From the NCBI GenBank assembly GCA_963703585.1, contig CAVPEX010000040.1:33945-97944 (forward strand): 64,000 bases of DNA, given 5' to 3'. Positions 1,113-17,722 of this stretch are shown here, in pieces. Under the pieces are notes generated by a model. That model did not search any database, was not told the DNA's origin, and saw only the letters and a list, made by a program, of their open reading frames with translations. The position numbers and the translations under genes are program-made. The DNA is from an uncultured Solirubrobacterales bacterium (GTDB lineage Bacteria; Actinomycetota; Thermoleophilia; Solirubrobacterales; 70-9). The first letter of the stretch is position 1. Each line of letters starts with the position of its first letter.

Positions 1113-1838
1113 GTGACGGATCCGGGTCGCTCGTCGCGCAGGCGCTTCCTCGCCAGGGTCGGCGGGGTCGCCGGCGCCGCGGCGCTGGGCGCGGCGGGGG
1201 CGGCCGAGGCGCTGAAGCCCAGCGGCGGCCGGGCGCCGCACCCGAAGACCCCGACCGAGGCGCTGCGCCTGCTGCAGGCGGGCAACTGGCGCTACCGCCA
1301 CGAAAAGCTGCAGCTGCGCGACTACTCGCCGGTGGGGGAGCGCCGCGCCGCCGAACAGAAGCCGTTCGCGGCGATCGTCACCTGCGCCGACTCGCGGGTC
1401 TCGCCGGAGCTGGTCTTCGACGTCGAACGCGGCAACCTCTTCGTCTCGCGGATCGCCGGCAACAGCATCGACACCGGCACCCTGGGGAGCACCGAGTACG
1501 CGGTCGCGGTGCTGGGGGTGAAGCTGGTGATGGTGCTCGGCCACAGCGACTGCGGCGCGATCAAGTCGGCGATCGAGGTGGTCAGCAACGGCAAGACCTA
1601 CCCGCCCTCGAAGTACGGCGCGATCGGTGAGGTGATCGATCCCCTGGTCCCGATCGTCGAGTCGCTGCCGGCGGATGAGCGCAACCTCCCCCGCTGCGTC
1701 CCCGCCAACGCGATCGCCCAGGCGGGCCAGCTAGCCGCCCGCGGCCCGATCGTCGGCCCGGAAATCGCGGCGGGGAACCTGCGCGTCGCCGCCGCCGTCT
1801 ACAACATCGCCAACGGCGCGGTCTCGGTCGTCCGCTAG
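1113..1838 (+). CDS. beta-class carbonic anhydrase with a twin-arginine (Tat) signal peptide
   Basis: 241-aa ORF. N-terminal SRRRFL followed by an Ala-rich hydrophobic region. Beta-CA zinc-ligand motifs CADSR and HSDCGA are present. Confidence 0.9.
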   Translation: MTDPGRSSRRRFLARVGGVAGAAALGAAGAAEALKPSGGRAPHPKTPTEALRLLQAGNWRYRHEKLQLRDYSPVGERRAAEQKPFAAIVTCADSRVSPELVFDVERGNLFVSRIAGNSIDTGTLGSTEYAVAVLGVKLVMVLGHSDCGAIKSAIEVVSNGKTYPPSKYGAIGEVIDPLVPIVESLPADERNLPRCVPANAIAQAGQLAARGPIVGPEIAAGNLRVAAAVYNIANGAVSVVR

Positions 1839-1839
1839 C

Positions 1840-3780
1840 CCGAAGTTACCCCCAGCCGCCGGCCCGGATCTGGCTTGAGAGATGAGAATCGGCGCCGCGG
1901 CGCCTGTCTCGCTCGTGTCTACGCCTGCTTGGGGATCGACTCGACCAGCTCCAGGGCCCGGGCCTGCACCGGGTTGGGCTCGGAAAGCCGCTCGAAGGTT
2001 GCCGTGGACTCGCCGACGCGGACCGTGTTGAGGGTCCGCAGCGAGAGCTCGGCGACCAGGCTCTCGAAGGAGTGGGGCGCCTCGCCGCGGGCGGTGCGCT
2101 TGCGGCGCGCCTTCGCGGTAGCGGCGCCCGAGCGCTTCGCCTTGGCGACCGGGTCGGCCTGCTCGGGCGGGCACTCGTCGCGGAAGGTGAGCTCCGCCCA
2201 GGCCTCGCGCAAATGCCACTCCAGGTAGTAGGAGAGCATGCAGAGGAAGAGATGGGCGCGGACCCGGTCCTCCAACCGGTGGTGGATCGGGCGCACCTCC
2301 AGCGGCCCCTTCAGGGTGCGGAAGGCGCGCTCGGCCCACTTCAGCTGCTTGTAGGAGCGGACCACGCCGGGGGCGTCGAGGCGCTCCTCGGCGACCGAGG
2401 TGCGCAGCACGTAGATCCCGTCGAGCGCCGCCTCGGCGGCGATCTGCTCGCCTTTGCGCGCGTAGGCGAAGGAAGCGTCGGCGATCGTCACCTCGAAGTG
2501 CTTCTTGACGCGGTAGCGCTTCAAGGCCGGGCCGGCCGCGAGGCCGATCTCGGCCGCCCCCCGCAGCGTCCCCGCCTCCACCCGCTCGCGGATCTCGCCG
2601 CAGCCCGCGCTCGGTGGCGGCGAGCAGCTCGGAGCGCTTGCGCGCGCGCTCCTGCGCGAGGAGCGGGTTGCGGCAGACCACCAGCCGCTCCCCGGGGAAG
2701 GCCTCGGAGGAGATCTCGGCGAGGTTGGTCTCGTCGAAGAGGCTGAGCTGCAGGTCGCCGTCCTTGACCAGCTTCTTCACCTGCGGCGCCTTCAGCGCCG
2801 TGATCCACGACGCCCCCTCGGTCTCGCCCAGCGCCTCCAGGTTGGCCTTGGTCGCCATCCCGCGGTCGCAGACGAGGACCGCCTCGGCGAGCCCGAAGCG
2901 CCGCTTGAGCTTCTCGATCTGGGCCGGCAGCGTCGCGGCGTCGCGGGTGGAGCCCGCGAAGGCCTCGATCGCGATCGGGCGGCCCGCGGGATCGCAGAGC
3001 AGCCCGTAGGTGACCTGCAGCGTGCCGCGCCGCCCGTCGCGCGAGTAGCCGCGCGAGGCGAGCGGGCACGTCCTTCCCTCGAAGTAGGAGGAGCTGAGGT
3101 CGTAGAGGGCGTGGGTGCCATCGGCGAGGTGGCGGGCGGCGAGGCGCTCCTCGATCTTCTCCTGGCGCTCCCCCAGCCAGTCCATCGCCGCGTAGAGGTC
3201 GTCCTGATCGGCGCCCTCCACCCCCAGCTCGGCGGCGAGCGTCGACTGGCGAAGCGAGCGCGCGGTGGCGAGCTTGGAGGCGGGCCGAAGGACTCGTTGG
3301 CAGATCATCGCCAGGCAGAGCTCGCGCTGCTTCGACGGGGAGCGGTCGAGCAGGCGGGCGAGGCCGAGGCGACGCGCGGCGCCCAGCACCGCGCAGACGT
3401 GGCCGGCGGGCAGCGAAGCGGCGATCGAGACCTCCCCGGCGCCCACGAGCGCCTCGCCGGCGAGCGCCGCCCGCAGCGCCTCGATCGCCTCCGGCGGCAG
3501 CTTCGAGACGTTGGCGATCGTCTCGTGGCGCACGCGCTTGCCCTCGCGGATCGAGCGGCGGATCAGGTGCGAGGTGTAGACGCGGTCGCCGTGGCGGCGC
3601 TCGATCTTGGCCACGTGCATCGCGCCTGACTTTCCCTTCATAGAGGCATTATTCACCATCCATCGGACGGGACGACGGCCATACTCTTGGCTACACTTGA
3701 CCGCCTAAGAAGACCCCGAATCCCGCATGGCGAGTGGGATCGGGGTCGATCAGCGGGCCGTTATTCGGGGTAACTTCGGA
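1840..3780 (-). mobile_element. IS1634-family (IS4 superfamily) insertion sequence, about 1.94 kb
   Basis: Terminal inverted repeats CCGAAGTTACCCC (1840-1852) and GGGGTAACTTCGG (3767-3779), with partial matches further inward (CGGCCCG...GATC). They bracket a single transposase gene. The left end abuts the carbonic anhydrase stop (1836-1838). No target-site duplication was recognised. Confidence 0.75.
1919..3659 (-). pseudogene. IS1634-family DDE transposase, one frameshift
   Basis: ORFs 3659 down to ~2600 and 2581 down to 1919 together give a full-length transposase (...YKQLKWAERAFRTLKGPLEVRPIHHRLEDRVRAHLFLCMLSYYLEWHLR...). The frames join at ...ELLAATERGL / EIRERVEAGTLRG, which implies a 1-nt indel near 2596-2603. 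Confidence 0.8.
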
Positions 3781-3949
3781 ATAAGGCCCCGGGGCCTCTC
3801 GGTCGCTCACCGGACGAGCTGCGGCTGGAGCTCGAGATCGGCGAAATCGACACCACCTGGGTCGTCTACGGGACGACCAAGCGGTTCCGGGGCGAGGTGA
3901 TCGGGATCCCCTCGCCCGAGGTCTTCCGGCAGAGCGCTCGAGCGCTCTC

Positions 3950-3977
3950 TTGATGGACAGGTACTTCTGTCTATAGT
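3950..3977 (+). promoter_or_regulatory. sigma-70-like promoter candidate for GNAT copy 1 (TTGATG-16 nt-TATAGT)
   Basis: -35 TTGATG at 3950-3955 and -10 TATAGT at 3972-3977. The whole block cttgatNNNcaggNacttctgtctatagtc is conserved at 6258-6289 upstream of the paralog. A GGGAGG Shine-Dalgarno precedes the ATG. Confidence 0.45.
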
Positions 3978-4018
3978 CAAGGGCTCGGGAAGGCCTCGAG
4001 ACGAGTCTGGGAGGCGCG

Positions 4019-4853
4019 ATGGGATGTGACGTTGCTCTGTTGGAGCGGGCCGAGCTCCGCTTTCGCGGCGATATCTGGAGGACCGCGCCGACAGACGCAG
4101 TCCTCGAGGCCGGCGTGCAGATGCGGCAGTTCGGGCCGGTCCTGGTCACCGTCTTCGCGGACCTTCCGGACGTCGCCGCGATGAACGCGGTCCAGGGCGC
4201 GGCGGAACCGGGGGCGGTTGCGGGCGGACACCTGGTCGAGGCGATCGACTGGACGCGGGAGTGGGAGGTCGACTACATCGTTCCCGTGGCCTCGAAGCGC
4301 CCGGAAACGGGGCCGGCGGAGGCGTGGCTCGCCGCGAACGGCTACGAGCAGAGCGGGATCGTGCGCAAGTACATCCGGCCGGCCTCTCCGCCGGGCTGGC
4401 AGGACCCGCCGGAGATCGAGGTCCGCAAGCTTGCGCCGCGCGAGACGGAAGGGATGAGCTACCTCGCGGTCGAATGCCTGGGGCTGCCCGACATGGTCGG
4501 GTTCCTCTTCTGCGACCTGCCGGAACTGGAGGGCTGGCATTGCTACGTCGCCCTCCTGGACGGCGTCGAGGTCGCCTGCGGCTCGATGCTGATCGCCGAC
4601 GGCATCGCGACGCTCGGGGTCGACGCCACGGCCGAGCACGCCCGCGGCCAGCGGCTGCAACGGCGCGCTGCTGGCACGCCGCCTCGAGGACGCCGCGGCG
4701 GCGGGCTGTCACACGGTGATGGCGGAGGCCTGCGACGCCCCGGGCAACGGGCCCTCGGCGGCGGCGCGCAACCTCCACCGGACCGGCTTCGTCGAGGCCA
4801 GCCACAGCGTCACCTGGCGCTACCCGGTCGGCATTTCCGAGTTAGCCGGATAG
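4019..4853 (+). pseudogene. GNAT family N-acetyltransferase, paralog 1, frameshifted
   Basis: Colinear with the intact paralog at 6327-7160 up to ...GVDATAEHARG. Relative to the paralog there is an extra A at 4650, which shifts the frame. In the corrected frame the protein continues RGCNGALLARRLEDAAAAGCHTVMAEAC...GISELAG to TAG at 851-853 of the 4800 line (4851-4853). Confidence 0.75.
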
Positions 4854-4868
4854 ATATTCCGAGTTAGC
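4835..4868 (+). repeat. 12-bp perfect direct repeat TTCCGAGTTAGC x2, 22 bp apart
   Basis: Copies at 4835-4846 (inside the last codons of GNAT copy 1) and 4857-4868 (just after its stop). They lie between the GNAT 3' end and the 3' end of the ATPase gene. Confidence 0.6.
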
Positions 4869-4890
4869 AGCGCTCGCGTCGTGGCGACGC

Positions 4891-6124
4891 TCAGGAGGGG
4901 GCCCACAGGGCGCCGATCGGAACCGCCCAGAGGCGGTCGCCCGACGGGAGCGTCCGCTCGCCGGGATGGACGACGGCGCCCGCGAGGAACCGATCTCCCG
5001 CCGCATCCCTCAGCATCTCCAAGCCTCTCCTGTCGGCGCCTGCCGACGACACCTTGGCCTTGACCTCGATCGCCGCGACCCGGCCCGAGCGATCCTCGGG
5101 CACGAGGTCCACCTCAGCGCCGCGCCGATCGCGAAAGTGGTAGACGCGCGGGGCGGCTGCGCTCCAGCTCGCGTGCTTGACGATCTCCATTGCGACGAAG
5201 GTCTCCAGCGCCGGCCCCGTAACCCTGTCGTCATTGGCGATCCGCTGCTCGTCGGCGCCAAGCAGGTGCGCCAGCAGGCCGCCATCGCTGATGTAGACCT
5301 TGGGTGCGTGCAACACGCGTTGAAGGAATCCCGGTCTCCAGGCGGGAACGACGCAGACGAGGAAGATCGCCTCCAGCAGGCCGACGTAACCTTTGACCGT
5401 CTTCTCGTCGAGCCGAAGCTCGCCAGCGAGGTTGGAGTAGCGCAGCAGGTTGGCTGAGCGGCTTGCCAGGGCCGCAAGCAGCCGCGGCATCTCGCTCTCC
5501 TTCTGGAGGTCTGCGATGGCTCTCAGGTCGCGCTCGAGCGTCGTGGTGAGGTAGCCGGCGAACCAGCGCTCGCACCGGCGCCCCTCGCGCAGGCGCGCCT
5601 CGGGATAGCCACCCGCGGCGACGCGCGAGGCGAAGGCCCCGCCCGATCGGTGCGCCCACGACACGGGGGGGCGAGCCTCCAAAGAGGGTGTCCACGAGGT
5701 TGGCACGAGTGCCCTCGATCTCCGTCTGCGCGAGACCCGGCAGATGAACGAGCTCGATCCTTCCGGTCAGCGCCTCGTGCACCTTGCGTGAGCTCAGGAT
5801 GTTGGCGGAGCCGGTCAGCAGGAACTGTCCTGGCCGGGTGTCGCGATCGACCGCTTGCTCGATCGCCAGGATCAACTCGGGTGCGCGCTGAACCTCGTCA
5901 AGAAGGACGGGAGTGCCGAAGCCGGCGAGAAAGCCGCGCGGATCCGAGAGGGCAGCTTGTCGTACCGCCTGGTCGTCGAGACTGACGACGACAGCTGGGT
6001 GGTCTTCGGTGGCGATCGTCTCACAAAGCGTGCTCTTTCCCACCTGGCGAGCGCCCATCACCATCGCGACACGGGTGTCTTTCAGGGCTTCGACGACAAG
6101 GGGTCGAGCATTGCGCTCGATCAC
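4891..6124 (-). pseudogene. AAA-family ATPase with C-terminal DUF4143-like domain, frameshift in a homopolymer
   Basis: N-terminal ORF 6124 down to ~5670 carries a Walker A motif (GARQVGKST) and ...LLTGSANIL.... The C-terminal ORF (5706 down to 4891) continues ...GGYPEARL...LLRYSNLAGEL...VYISDGGLLAHL...EVDLV.... The frames join at LFGGSPP / VSWAHRSG inside a run of seven G at 5665-5671. Codon third positions look less GC-rich than in neighbouring genes. Confidence 0.75.
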
Positions 6125-6155
6125 AGCAAGACCGACAGCCGGCGCCCATGCGGGG

Positions 6156-6243
6156 CGGTTCCGGAATCAAGAGTTGGCATTTCCGGAAAGCGCATAGGAC
6201 AAATCCGGAAGGTTTGGGTGGCAGATCCGGAAAAGTGCTGCGA
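6156..6243. repeat. array of four 22-bp direct repeats (iterons), each with a TCCGGA palindromic core
   Basis: TCCGGA at 6160-6165, 6182-6187, 6204-6209 and 6226-6231, spaced exactly 22 bp. Units: cggtTCCGGAatcaagagttgg / cattTCCGGAaagcgcatagga / caaaTCCGGAaggtttgggtgg / cagaTCCGGAaaagtgctgcga. The array lies between the ATPase start (6124, minus strand) and the GNAT-2 promoter. Confidence 0.8.
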
Positions 6244-6259
6244 CCACTCAGGCGCTCCC

Positions 6260-6287
6260 TTGATACGCAGGGACTTCTGTCTATAGT
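6260..6287 (+). promoter_or_regulatory. sigma-70-like promoter candidate for GNAT copy 2 (TTGATA-16 nt-TATAGT)
   Basis: -35 at 6260-6265 and -10 at 6282-6287. Same conserved block as at 3950-3977. Confidence 0.45.
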
Positions 6288-6326
6288 CTGGGGCTCTGGG
6301 AAAAGTCCGACCACTGGGAGGCGCCA

Positions 6327-7160
6327 ATGGTTTGTGACGTTGCAGGATTGGAGCGGGCCGAGTGCCGCTTCCGCGCCGACATCTGGAGGGCCGCGCCGAT
6401 AGATGCGGTGATCGAGGCGGGCGTCCAGATGCAATGGTTCGGGCCGCTGCTGGCGACGGTGTTCGCCGATCTACCCGAGATCGCCGGCCTGAACGTGATT
6501 CAGGGCGCGGCGGAGCCGGGGGCGCTCGGGGACGGGCACCTCCGCGAGGCGATCGAGTGGACGAGAGAGTGGGAAGTCGACTACGTCGTTCCGGTGGCGT
6601 CAGACCGCCCCGACACCGAGCGGGCGGAGGCGTGGCTCGCGGGGCAGGGCTACGAGCAGGGCGGAGTCGTGCGGAAGTATGTTCGCGGGGCGTCGCGCCC
6701 GAGCTGGCGGGACGCGCCGGGCGTCGAGGTTCACAAGCTTGCGCCGCGCGAGACGGAAGGGATGAGCTACCTCGCCGCTGAGAGCCTGGGGCTTCCCGAC
6801 AGCGTCGGGTTCCTCTTCTGCGACCTGCCGGAACTGCCGAACTGGCACTGCTATGTCGCCCAGTTGGACGGCCTCGAGGTCGCCTGCGGCTCGATGCTGC
6901 TCGTCGACGGGATCGCGATCCTGGGCCTCGACGCCACCGCCGAGCAGGCCCGTGGCCGCGGCTGCCACAGCGCGCTCCTGGCGCGCCGCCTCGAGGACGC
7001 CGCCAAGGCCGGCTGCCACACGGTGCTGGCCGAGGCCTGCGACGAACCCGGGAACGGTGGCCTGGCGGCGGTTCGGAACCTGCACCGGGCGGGCTTCGTG
7101 GAAGCAGGGCGCAGCGTCACCTGGCGGCGGCCGGTCGGCATCTCCGAGTTCGCTGGATAG
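6327..7160 (+). CDS. GNAT family N-acetyltransferase, paralog 2 (intact)
   Basis: 277-aa ORF. The C-terminal half has an acetyl-CoA-binding-type motif (QARGRGCHSALLARRLEDAAKAGC) and NLHRAGFVE. About three quarters of residues match copy 1 by eye. Confidence 0.85.
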   Translation: MVCDVAGLERAECRFRADIWRAAPIDAVIEAGVQMQWFGPLLATVFADLPEIAGLNVIQGAAEPGALGDGHLREAIEWTREWEVDYVVPVASDRPDTERAEAWLAGQGYEQGGVVRKYVRGASRPSWRDAPGVEVHKLAPRETEGMSYLAAESLGLPDSVGFLFCDLPELPNWHCYVAQLDGLEVACGSMLLVDGIAILGLDATAEQARGRGCHSALLARRLEDAAKAGCHTVLAEACDEPGNGGLAAVRNLHRAGFVEAGRSVTWRRPVGISEFAG

Positions 7161-8750: not shown

Positions 8751-8793
8751 CTACTCCATCTCCCCTCGGTACGTATACGTTCTCACAACACGC

Positions 8794-11700
8794 CTAACCG
8801 GCGTGCAGACCGAGCTTCGGCAGCACTCGCTCGAGCGGGCGCGGTAGCCACCAGACCCGCTCGCCCACCAGCAGCATCAGCGCCGGCAGCAGGACGATCC
8901 GCACGACGGTGGCGTCGAGGACGACGGCGACGGCGAGGCCGGTGCCGAGCTGGCTGACGGTGGCGATCGGCGCCGCGGCGAAGGCGACGAAGACGGCGAC
9001 CATGATCGCGGCGGCGCCGGTGATGACCCGGGCCGTGCGCTCGAGGCCGAAGGCGATCGCCTCCTCGTTCGTCGCCCCGCCTTCCCTGCTCTCGCGCATG
9101 CGGCTGAGCAGGAACACCGCGTAGTCGATCGAGAGGCCGAAGACGATGCCGAAGATGCCGGCGGCGCCGATCGAGTCGACGTAGGTGTGGCCGCCGAGCG
9201 GCCAGCCGGCGGGGACGTCGAAGAGGAGGGTGAGGACGCCGAAGGCGACGGCGACCGTGAGCAGGTTGAGGGCGACCGCGATCGCGGCGAGGGCGAGGGC
9301 GCGGAGGACGACGAGGAGGACGAGGAAGGTGACGATGGAGATGGCGACGATGACGAGCGGGACGCGGGAGGAGATCGCGTCGCTGTAGTCGGCGAGCTGG
9401 GCGGGGCCGCCGGTGACGCCGGTGCGCAGGCCGCTCGAGGCGGCGAGGCCGTCGGCGTCCTCCCTGAGGCGGTCGTTGAGCGCGGCGGAGCCGGGGGTGT
9501 TGAAGGTGTCGCGGGGGATGACGAGCATCTGCGCGCCGCCGCCGCCGTGGGCGAGGTCGATGACGCGGGCGGCGCGGTCGCGCTGCGCGGGCGGGGCGCC
9601 GTCGAGGGCGGAGAGGACGAAGTAGCCGGAGTCGAAGATGCGGGGGGAGGAGCGGCGCAGGCGCTCGGTCTGGCGGGAGAGGTCGTCGGCGTTGTCGGTG
9701 ACCCTGACGCCGGCGCGGACCAGGCCACCCTGGAGCGGGCGCGAGTCGTGGTAGCCCTGGGAGAGGTTGCGCGAGAGAGCGTCGGCGCCGCCGGTGAGGC
9801 GTTCGAGGCCGCCGGCGAGCTCGGTGGAGCCCTGGCGGAGCTGCTCGAGGCCGGCCGGGAGCGGCTCGGCGCCCGCGGCGAGCTCGCCGGCGCCCTGGTG
9901 GAGTTCCGCCCCGCCCTCGGAGAGCTTCTTCTGGCCGGCGTGCAGGCGGGTGGAGAGCGCGTGGGCGCGCTTGGCCTGGTTGCGGGCGAGGACCAGAGAC
10001 TGCAGGAGCACTTCGGCCTGCCGCGCCTCGCCCGCGAGGTCGGGGTCGGAGGCGGCGGCGGCGTTGAGCTCGTCGCGCAGGCGGCGGGCACGGGCGACGC
10101 CGCCCTGGCGCAGCACCGGCAGCAGGGCGTTGAGTTCGTCCAGCACCGAGCGGGCGGCGAGCAGGGCGCGGCGCTGGCCCTCGGCGAGGCGGCCGGAGCC
10201 GTCGTCGAGCTCGGCGAGCGCTTCCATCGCTTCGCTCGGCGCCGGCGACGGCGCGTTCGAGCCCGCCGGCGATGTCGGCGGCGCCTTCGCCGGCGCGGCC
10301 GGAGCCGGTCGCGATCAGGCCGGCGCCCGCGGCGGCGCGGGCGATGCCGCGGCGGAGCTGGCCGACCCCGCCCGCGGCGCGTTCGAGCCGGTCGCCGAGC
10401 TTGGTCAGCCTGGTCGGGCTGGCGTCGCCTTCGTCTTCCAGGAGCTCGTTGCCGCTGGTGCGGAGTGGGGCGACCCGGCGCTTGACCTGGCCGGGGCCGA
10501 TCACCGCCTGGACGCCCGGGTCGTCGGCGATCTGCCGCTGCAGGCGCTGGAGGGCGGCGAGGCGGCTGTCGCTGGTGATCGGCCCGCGCTCGGTGGCGGC
10601 GACGAGGACGAAGGGGGCGTCCCAGCCGGCGCCGATGGCGCGGTCGACCGTCTCCGCGTCCTCGCGAGCGCCGTTGGACTCGGGAAGCTGGGAGGCGCTC
10701 GGCGGGCCGGTCTTCAGCGCCAGCACCGGCAGGGCGAGGAGGACGAGGGCGCCGCCGATCAGGCCCGCGGCGAGGCGCGGGCGGGCGAGAGCGGCGCTGA
10801 CGGTCGCCATCAGCCGGGTGCCGTCGTTGCCGGAGCCGATCCGCCGGCGGTCGAGGTTCGGTCCGAGCAGGAGCAAGAGCGGCGGGGCGATAAAGGTGGC
10901 GATGACGACGCTGATGACGGTGACGAGGATCGCGGTGCCGGCAAGCGAGAGGAACAGCGTCCCCGGCATCGCCCAGAGGATCACCACCATCGCCAGCAGC
11001 AGGGTCGAGCCGGCAAAGGCGGTGGTGCGGCCGGCGGTGGCACGGGTGCGGCCGGCGGCGTCCAGCGGCGAGCTGCCCGAGGAGAGCTCCTCGCGGAAGC
11101 GGGAGACCATGAGCAGCGCGTAGTCGACCCCCAGCGCGAGCCCCATCATCGTCGCGGTGGTGAGAGCGAAGCCGTCGACCTCGAAATGGGAGGCGGCGAT
11201 GGCGAGCAGGCCGCGCGACGCGAGCACCGCCGCGGCACCGAAGACGAGCGGAATCGCCGCGGCGACCGGAGAGCGGAAGACGAGCAGGAGGACCAGCAAC
11301 AGGATCGGTACCGCGATCAGCTCGGCGATGCGCGTCGAGCGCACCGATTCGTCCTGGATCGCCCGCGAGAGCGTCGCAAAGCTGGTCTGCGTGGCGGTGA
11401 CCGGCGAGTGGATCGCGGCCTCGAGCGTCCGGTTCAGCCCGGGAACGCTGTCCTTCACCGCGTCCTCTGCGTTCACGTGGAAGTCGACGAGGATCAGCGC
11501 CTTGCGGGGCGACGGGCGCAGGCGGTCGAGCTCCCCCCGGTCCCATGGCGAGAGCGTGGTGACCCTCGGATCCCTCCTCAGCGCCCGCACCAGCTGCGGC
11601 CCCTGACGATCGAGGGCGGGACCTGGCCCGCGCAGGAGGATCGCGAAGGGAGCCGAGTCGCCGAAGTGATCCCGCAACAACGACTCCCCCTCCGCCGACT

Positions 11701-11851
11701 CGGTCCCGGGCACGCCGACCGAGGTCGGCCGCAGCTTTCCCTCGACCCCGATGCCGACGATCCCGAGGCTGACGATGACCGCGAGAGCGATCGCCAGCGT
11801 AGCCCGCGGGCGTCGCAGGACCAGACGGCCTCCCTGCACGTCCGCGGCCAC
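8794..11851 (-). CDS. MMPL family transporter with a large coiled-coil (YhgE/Pip-like) insert; one apparent frameshift
   Basis: The N-terminal half (11851 down to ~10230) and the C-terminal half (ORF 10227-8794) each contain an MMPL-type transmembrane bundle (...GLALGVDYALLMVSRFREE... and ...GLSIDYAVFLLSRMRESRE...). The frames join at AGAER / AMEALAELDDG, which implies a 1-nt indel near 10228-10233. Confidence 0.85.
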
Positions 11852-17606: not shown

Positions 17607-17722
17607 GATTAACCGAAAAACCACAAAATTTGGCATCCGGGGCAGCCGGAAAAACTACTGGTCTGGTATCGGCGACGCAAGTCGGCGGACGAGCTTTGCA
17701 AGCGGCGATTCGGCCGCGAGGC

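Follow-up and report, generated by a model that had tools for sequence, protein, structure and literature searches.

The window analysed here is a 64,000-nucleotide stretch of contig CAVPEX010000040.1 from an uncultured Solirubrobacterales bacterium, and our subject is an array of short direct repeats that precedes a minus-strand gene for a predicted ATPase-nuclease of the PDC-S01 family (COG1373). The array fills the gap between the GTG start codon of this gene (6124, minus strand) and the promoter of a divergent GNAT gene, GNAT-2 (TTGATA(6260)-16-TATAGT), as an earlier note on this DNA had described; a paralogue, GNAT-1, lies on the far side of the ATPase gene (Table 1). Sequence comparison with related loci indicates that the array belongs to the ATPase gene family: it sits before the gene, and appears to travel and co-evolve with it. 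The repeats are most likely the ATPase's own docking or operator site, overlapping its promoter.

The four evenly spaced TCCGGA repeats are confirmed, with starts at 6160, 6182, 6204 and 6226 and hence an exact 22-bp period, which agrees with the earlier note. That note took TCCGGA to be a palindromic site, a view we do not share. On the ATPase strand the conserved block is asymmetric and 12–13 nt long, TCCGGA(A/T)NTG(C/T)C, with the four versions TCCGGATCTGCC, TCCGGATTTGTC, TCCGGAAATGCC and TCCGGAACCGCC, so that the palindrome covers no more than the first half of the site. Read on this strand, each unit consists of the asymmetric TTCCGGAWNTGCC followed by nine variable bases, and units 1–4 are, in full, tcgcagcacttTTCCGGATCTG, ccacccaaaccTTCCGGATTTG, tcctatgcgctTTCCGGAAATG and ccaactcttgaTTCCGGAACCG. 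A fifth unit, ccccgcatgggcGCCGGCTGTC, is in phase with the others and ends 10 bp before the ATPase GTG; it is degenerate, carrying GCCGGC, with CCGG at 6139–6142, 15 bp before the GTG. Within the array the cores are perfectly kept and the spacers have diverged, while conservation is weak in the fourth and fifth units. Tandem Repeats Finder did not report the array in the window, because the 9-nt spacers are unconserved.

TCCGGA occurs 12 times in the window, which has a G+C content of 71%, and the only pairs less than 100 bp apart are members of the array. From this observed density, about 8e-11 arrays of four TCCGGA in phase are expected. Frequent recurrence of the same spacing in shuffled sequence, which the earlier note had named as a possible refutation, does not occur: three pairs of TCCGGA at 22 bp, with up to one mismatch, are observed versus 0.7 in dinucleotide-preserving shuffles. 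A functionless tandem duplication or a chance pattern might be suspected from the unconserved spacers, and from the adjacent ATPase gene being dead in this genome. We regard this as scarcely credible, since the chance expectation is about 1e-10, kept cores with diverged spacers are the opposite of what recent slippage produces, and the same architecture recurs throughout the family, so that the comparative data already contradict it. Nor do the units form part of a dispersed family such as a miniature inverted-repeat transposable element (MITE), the other objection that had been foreseen: clustered units are found in the 64 kb at 6156–6243 only. With its 13-nt core and 9-nt spacer, the array is also distinct from an array of clustered regularly interspaced short palindromic repeats (CRISPR), where repeats are at least about 23 nt and unique spacers at least about 26 nt long.

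Table 1. Features of the array, the ATPase gene and the flanking GNAT genes in the window
Feature	Position	Strand	Basis or remark
GNAT-1, frameshifted	3932..4853	+	Duplicated host DNA, 3' side of cassette
Local 22-bp duplication, TTCCGAGTTAGC twice	4835..4868	+	Junction of GNAT-1 end and cassette 3' end
ATPase with AAA_14, winged helix and DUF4143 (PD-(D/E)xK), PDC-S01 family, pseudogene	4891..6124	-	Pfam, PADLOC
Five-unit 22-bp direct-repeat array	6134..6243	-	Read towards ATPase start
Array units 1-4	6243-6222, 6221-6200, 6199-6178, 6177-6156	-	Core TTCCGGAWNTGCC
Degenerate fifth array unit	6155-6134	-	GCCGGCTGTC
GNAT-2 with promoter (TTGATA 6260 / TATAGT to 6287)	6242..7160	+	Array-side copy of duplicated host DNA

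Two minus-strand open reading frames (ORFs), at 5231–6124 and 4891–5706, are joined by tblastn as the halves of one ATPase gene. Its reading frame is not intact, being broken by a frameshift at approximately 5636–5640 that an independent contig of 99.5% identity (L209) shares. The N-terminal half of the protein matches AAA_14 (1.6e-24) and the C-terminal half DUF4143 (1.4e-40) in Pfam, and the repaired protein matches the PADLOC model for PDC-S01 (PDLC04790) end to end over residues 1–409 (8.6e-148). DUF4143 has been placed in the PD-(D/E)xK nuclease superfamily (PMC3424549), and PDC-S01, an ATPase fused to such a nuclease, is the fourth most common defence candidate in prokaryotes, with tens of thousands of genomic copies, and is experimentally unvalidated (PMC12988326). 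Our own search of 1.84 billion representative proteins recovered 19,507 clusters of the family at 50% identity (E <= 0.001). The family is a candidate anti-phage system, and a very common one.

To judge from these sequences, the system in the window is a relic and its array a decaying copy, a status that fits the weak conservation of the fourth and fifth units. The decay has gone further in a 96% relative (L210), where two units and 46 + 76 bp of the ATPase gene are left; this relic, with 122 bp of the gene in all, spans 912–1199. A second relic, in L097 (5252–5407), consists of three units and the last 27 ATPase codons, and L007 has what may be called a solo array (303–390), in which four units precede a small ribbon-helix-helix-type gene and there is no ATPase.

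The association of array and gene was followed from the DNA and from the protein side. A scan for three TCCGGA at 22 bp in about 185,000 genomes, one per species (596 Gb), returned at least 120 loci, many of which are unrelated tandem repeats. Among the 120 matches listed, 17 have a homologue of the ATPase (39–47% identity) starting 40–110 bp downstream. These listed loci come from Solirubrobacterales, Acidobacteriota, Betaproteobacteria, Myxococcota, Nitrospirota and others, and at every one of them the array precedes the gene and the motif has the same orientation. Their typical unit is TAATCCGGATTGGACG followed by 5–6 variable bases. Closer relatives (L121, L123 and L125; 72–76% identity) carry three to four units of the window type, TCCGGA(A/T)NTG(N)C, and in L125 GATTCCGGATCTGCCAG is found four times. 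From the protein side, metagenomes were scanned by protein alignment, which gave 80 loci with 28–57% identity, picked regardless of their DNA. In 74 of these we scored repeated 12-mers at 21–24 bp spacing within 235 bp around the start codon, with starts placed by alignment, and compared them with 195 control windows taken inside the gene, after the gene or 900 bp upstream. Repeated 12-mers are present at 41/74 homologue loci versus 8/195 controls (Fisher p ~3e-20), and three or more units in phase at 29/74 versus 0/195 (Fisher p ~5e-19). The array in the window belongs to this class, having at least three direct units at 21–24 bp, in one orientation and less than about 100 bp before the ATPase start.

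Annotated plasmid copies of the gene also have arrays, with four units in Agrobacterium tumefaciens and two in Thermus thermophilus, and a further case in Pseudomonas mendocina. The sub-clade of L138 and L208 (Pseudomonas mendocina plasmid NZ_CP115818.1) has a distal array, CACGACTACAGATTCCGG in three to four copies, at −230 to −130 from the ATG, and in addition a two-unit proximal site, ATTTCCACCACTGAATGGATGAATTTACACC, that immediately precedes the ATG. The neighbours of the array and gene differ from locus to locus. In L121, whose homologue is 77% identical, a divergent tyrosine recombinase gene (Phage_integrase, 2973–3821) lies directly upstream of the array, and in L123 a PIN/RHH toxin–antitoxin pair and an SNF2 helicase lie 3' of the ATPase gene.

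The position of the array between divergent genes, with its outermost unit ending about 17 bp from the GNAT-2 −35 box, could also suggest an operator through which a different, host-encoded regulator controls the ATPase and GNAT-2 promoters. This is very unlikely, as the GNAT-1 paralogue has the same promoter and no array, relatives with a single GNAT have no array, and the array tracks the ATPase across phyla whatever the neighbours, with a motif that varies with the ATPase lineage.

This variation is orderly. When loci are arranged by protein similarity, the motif classes fall in blocks: the window clade has the unit TTCCGGAWNTGNC, its sister groups TCCGCATATGCA, CTTTCCAGAT and TCCCAAWTT, and a Solirubrobacterales group TCCGGATTRTCCGC. 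A large clade is characterised by TCCGGATTGGACG, with branches having TCCGAANTAGACG, TTTCAATTGGTCG and ATTCCCGAATTTACG, and further groups have TTGCAATCAGCCG, CGGCAGATCCACC, CTGCGCATCTGTCAG, TCGCGAATCTGCGA and AATACAGGAYACAATCC. The unit is shared with the closest protein relatives and diverges with protein distance, the motif similarity dropping with a Spearman coefficient of −0.44 across 58 non-redundant loci (permutation p <= 0.0005), a statistic which, like the residue counts given below, ignores phylogeny. Even adjacent paralogues can have different arrays, as in L012, with TCCGGATTGTCCGC three times at one gene and GTACGATCC three times, at 23 bp, at the other.

A sequence search of the PDB gave no relative. 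An AlphaFold2 model of an intact, 77%-identical homologue (P0006) reached a predicted local distance difference test score (pLDDT) of 91.7 and a predicted template modelling score (pTM) of 0.91, and is predicted to comprise an AAA+ core, a helical lid, a winged helix and a C-terminal alpha/beta nuclease domain. The modelled winged helix would consist of helices 230–237 and 241–253, followed by a beta wing. Neither the Walker A motif nor any of the nuclease residues E308, D340, E354 and K356 varies among 23 aligned homologues. Foldseek comparison of the model with the PDB retrieved RuvB, the NB-ARC modules of plant NLRs, Apaf-1 and Avs (STAND), Orc1/Cdc6 on origin DNA, Hda and MuB, with high probability and low template modelling (TM) scores, the latter being expected because the protein is multi-domain. 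On the strength of the model, the AAA+/winged-helix core resembles Orc1/Cdc6-type initiators, STAND or RuvB modules.

Residues 240–243, at the start of the predicted recognition helix, read D[DE]KT in 19 of the 20 lineages with TCCGG units versus 5 of the 38 others. Among the alternatives, NHVT goes with units of the TTTCAA type, SRPT with TTGCAA and KRDT with CTGCGC, and T243 and Y247 are invariant across lineages. Together with the motif classes, these correspondences mark the array as a lineage-specific partner of the ATPase, and the winged helix is its obvious candidate reader.

Several loci bear on the position of the ATPase promoter. L143 and L144 share 89% identity over a stretch that opens with the first unit (−96) and closes 5–8 bp past the end of the gene, between unrelated flanks, and since the homology starts at the first unit the array must contain the promoter. 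The TAGTAT box of L125, 7 nt before the GTG, has the last unit at its −35 position. In many relatives the array extends into the start codon, and in TCCGGATTGGACG-type loci the ATG itself lies inside the last, degenerate in-phase unit (TCCGnnATGGACG). Given this overlap, one would expect binding at the array to control transcription of the ATPase gene. Explanations at the RNA level were considered and rejected, since 4700–6500 has no Rfam match at E <= 1 and the array transcript folds no better than shuffles (z = +0.84).

We conclude, with a probability of roughly 0.65, that the adjacent AAA+/winged-helix/PD-(D/E)xK ATPase has in these repeats its cognate DNA-binding array. Each 22-bp unit has one asymmetric 13-nt site, and the sites all point towards the gene and lie two helical turns apart. 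This anatomy, its conservation throughout the family and the co-variation of repeats and protein lineage are observed, whereas binding, cooperativity and repression are inferred. In the proposed mechanism one protomer would bind per unit, using the N-terminal end of the recognition helix in its winged helix, and adjacent protomers would touch through their AAA+ modules. The outcome would be a cooperative nucleoprotein assembly over the gene's own promoter, which would hold down the expression of a potentially toxic nuclease (autoregulation), and which could double as a loading platform for the protein.

A number of points weigh against such a reading. Approximately 40% of the sampled homologues have no array by the 12-mer criterion; this concerns especially homologues with less than 35% identity and one two-unit sub-clade. 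Part of the co-variation signal is common descent of the gene and its flank. The window contains no clear sigma-70-type promoter for the ATPase, and in the searchable literature the family figures only as an unvalidated defence candidate. Simple autorepression would not call for as many as three to eight sites, and autoregulation alone explains neither the second, downstream arrays seen at a few loci (L004 and L109) nor the host duplications that flank 13 of 80 loci, both of which we return to below.

The earlier note offered two kinds of explanation for the array, cooperative repressor operators on the one hand and iteron-type replication or partition sites on the other. The first comes close to what the comparisons support, namely phased direct repeats that are tied to the ATPase and overlap its promoter; the second finds no support at this locus. 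Arrays of iterons that accompany the gene of their initiator are known from P1 (incC-repA-incA), F, pPS10 and R6K. The resemblance is considerable: in both cases direct repeats of about 22 bp, in one orientation, lie upstream of the gene for the presumed binder and overlap its promoter, a second array follows downstream in some relatives, and the repeat sequence is specific to the protein lineage. The 22-bp repeats beside a winged-helix gene, on both sides of it in some relatives, thus recall by analogy the iteron–rep–iteron layout of P1 and F, and the fold search with the model recovers Orc1/Cdc6 on origin DNA. However, the protein here is an AAA+ ATPase with a PD-(D/E)xK nuclease rather than an initiator of the Rep_3, pi or TrfA type, and the loci are chromosomal, with no A+T-rich element, DnaA box or evidence of replication. 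Phased repeats in the range of 17–22 bp are the only feature of a plasmid origin found at the locus, which has no adjacent Rep gene, no unwinding element or DnaA boxes nearby, and no backbone of a plasmid or an integrative and conjugative element (ICE).

It is therefore highly improbable that the repeats are replication iterons of a plasmid or ICE, or that they form a partition centromere. No Rep, ParA, ParB or ParR gene is nearby, the adjacent genes being only the AAA_14/DUF4143 ATPase and the GNATs, and no conjugation or replication genes were seen in the first 12 kb of the window (1–12 kb). The array region has 59% G+C and no A+T-rich unwinding stretch, and 4700–6500 has no TTATCCACA-like DnaA box with up to one mismatch. 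The flanks are chromosomal, being syntenic with contigs of relatives without the cassette (array plus ATPase gene), and the ATPase gene decays without loss of the locus. Homologues are present on 215 of 72,556 plasmid records, mostly megaplasmids with replicons of their own, and they are essentially absent from phage records, with 5 uncultured phage-like records carrying them.

Two further systems invite comparison. Archaeal Orc1/Cdc6 proteins with their origin recognition boxes (ORBs; PDB 2qby) share with the present family the AAA+/lid/winged-helix arrangement and repeated elements beside their own gene, the binding here being predicted. ORBs are longer and less numerous, and they often stand inverted on either side of an unwinding element; Orc1/Cdc6 lacks a nuclease domain, and its TM-scores to the P0006 model are low (0.22–0.23). 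In type II and Ib partition systems (ParR-parC of R1 and pSK41) the array doubles as an autoregulatory operator that is coated cooperatively. A phased direct-repeat array upstream of the gene for the presumed binder is common to these systems and to the locus studied here. ParR, in contrast, is a small ribbon-helix-helix protein that works with a ParM or ParA motor; the window locus has no ParA or ParM gene, and no ParB or ParR gene, next to the array, as a parC or parS centromere would, and is not on a plasmid. By analogy, then, the layout would work like iterons or partition-type operator arrays, here in the service of an abundant, uncharacterised ATPase-nuclease family.

Alternatively, the array might act in cis as the end, or as the recombination site, of a small mobile cassette made up of the array and the ATPase-nuclease gene. 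The protein would assemble on the array, its PD-(D/E)xK domain would cut or recombine DNA, and the cassette would be moved or copied, a scheme with which an operator role is compatible. The comparisons show the cassette to be a discrete, horizontally moving unit: its borders are sharp, both in the L143/L144 pair described above and in L125 and L126, which are identical until 15 bp beyond the stop codon, where the two sequences part, and the same type of cassette is found in distant phyla. Direct duplications of host DNA bracket the cassette at 13/80 loci versus 2/293 shifted control intervals (p = 6e-8), with lengths of 42–918 bp and identities of 81–98%. At most of these loci the duplicated piece includes the 3' end of a co-directional host gene together with its stop codon, and the cassette comes next. 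The invariant catalytic residues of the nuclease fit a cutting role as well. In L004 and L109 there are arrays on both sides of the gene, in direct orientation, the second having four units right after the ATPase stop codon (6468–6543 and 2271–2353, respectively), with a convergent gene beyond it; in L004 the upstream array borders on a run of N, which makes the assembly there uncertain.

The window is the extreme case among these loci. GNAT-1 and GNAT-2, which are about 81% identical at the nucleotide level, promoter included, flank the cassette, and the duplicated GNAT is divergent from the ATPase rather than co-directional with it. Three relatives (L211, L212 and L214) have a single GNAT and no cassette; L211 and L214 have the gene that lies upstream of GNAT-1 in the window, and L212 has the genes downstream of GNAT-2. 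We considered L210, with its two adjacent GNATs, as an empty site and rejected it, as the remnants of the gene and the two units mark it as a deletion derivative.

Other observations make a role of the array in moving the cassette unlikely, if still conceivable. Neither terminal inverted repeats nor a target duplication of constant length were found at the cassettes, most loci have neither a flanking duplication nor a downstream array, and no clean pair of empty and filled sites at high identity was found. The duplication lengths vary 20-fold, for which homologous (Campbell-type) integration or local tandem duplication in variable regions is as good an explanation as an enzyme-driven process, and defence genes in variable islands likewise show sharp borders and horizontal transfer. 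Microhomology at the insertion junction is suggestive in L125, where GATTCCGG is common to the target and the first unit, but it is inconsistent across loci. The ends of Tn7 and Mu contain multiple 22-bp transposase-binding sites and have an AAA+ partner (TnsC and MuB, respectively). The cassette shares with them sites of about 22-bp period at the border of a discrete unit and an AAA+ protein, with MuB among the fold matches. It differs in having no DDE transposase gene, an array on one side with rare second arrays that are direct rather than inverted, and duplications of 42–918 bp in place of a short, fixed one. The locus, in short, lacks the defining features of a plasmid origin, a centromere, a Tn7 or Mu end, a CRISPR array and a MITE.

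In the searchable literature on DUF4143, COG1373, PDC-S01 and AAA_14 no cis repeat array is described, and within that literature a cognate array of PDC-S01 genes appears to be previously undescribed. PDC-S01/COG1373 proteins are among the most abundant uncharacterised ATPase-nucleases of bacteria and archaea. If each gene does come with a co-evolving array of sites, the sequence alone reveals a defined DNA ligand for the family, and its binding, ATP-dependent assembly and nuclease licensing become directly testable. There would also be a rule for annotating intact, relic and solo arrays, and one would have to ask if the cassettes count as defence genes, as selfish elements or as both. More speculatively, and we think somewhat less probably still than a role for the array as a mobility site, PDC-S01 'genes' could be two-part cassettes of a lineage-specific 22-bp array and an AAA+/winged-helix/nuclease protein that oligomerises on it. 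The assembly would then be more than an operator, being the active form that cuts or recombines DNA, and the cassettes would mobilise or copy themselves, inserting just behind host genes with long host duplications. Were this so, the fourth most common 'defence candidate' of prokaryotes would, at least partly, be a new kind of selfish element.

Two sets of repeats that the earlier note had linked to the array are in our view not related to it. The pair at 4835 and 4857 exists, TTCCGAGTTAGC being present at both positions, but it is not kin to the array: the first copy coincides with the final codons of GNAT-1, which are homologous to the GNAT-2 end, and the 13-nt unit is not matched, and we therefore reject the pair as a second array. 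The supposed degenerate relative at 17630–17654, where two CCGG lie 10 bp from each other, departs from the unit pattern and is likewise rejected. The genome scan also revealed another class of TCCGGA repeats at 22 bp, TGTCCGGATG..TCCG, in Firmicutes-type contigs (L062 at 4237–4308, and also L005, L013, L018, L026, L061 and L094), which is unrelated to the ATPase family; in L062 these repeats adjoin an ORF resembling the N-terminal domain of a tyrosine recombinase.

Some minor observations concern the genes around the cassette. GNAT-1 is frameshifted in the window because of an extra C at 4652, as compared with the 99.5%-identical L209, and it is intact (277 aa) in L210. The expected continuation of the gene upstream of GNAT-1, which is intact in L214 and L211, is occupied in the window by a DDE_Tnp_1 transposase ORF (1731–3659, minus strand) with a garbled C-terminal half, possibly reflecting a frameshift, and 3810–3951 (plus strand) keeps the last 45 or so codons of that gene (...LELEIGEIDTTWVVYGTTKRF...). 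On the other side, an MMPL transporter at 8783–11851 (minus strand) is split into overlapping ORFs of 1022 aa, with a garbled C-terminus, and 477 aa, which points to a frameshift or an assembly error.

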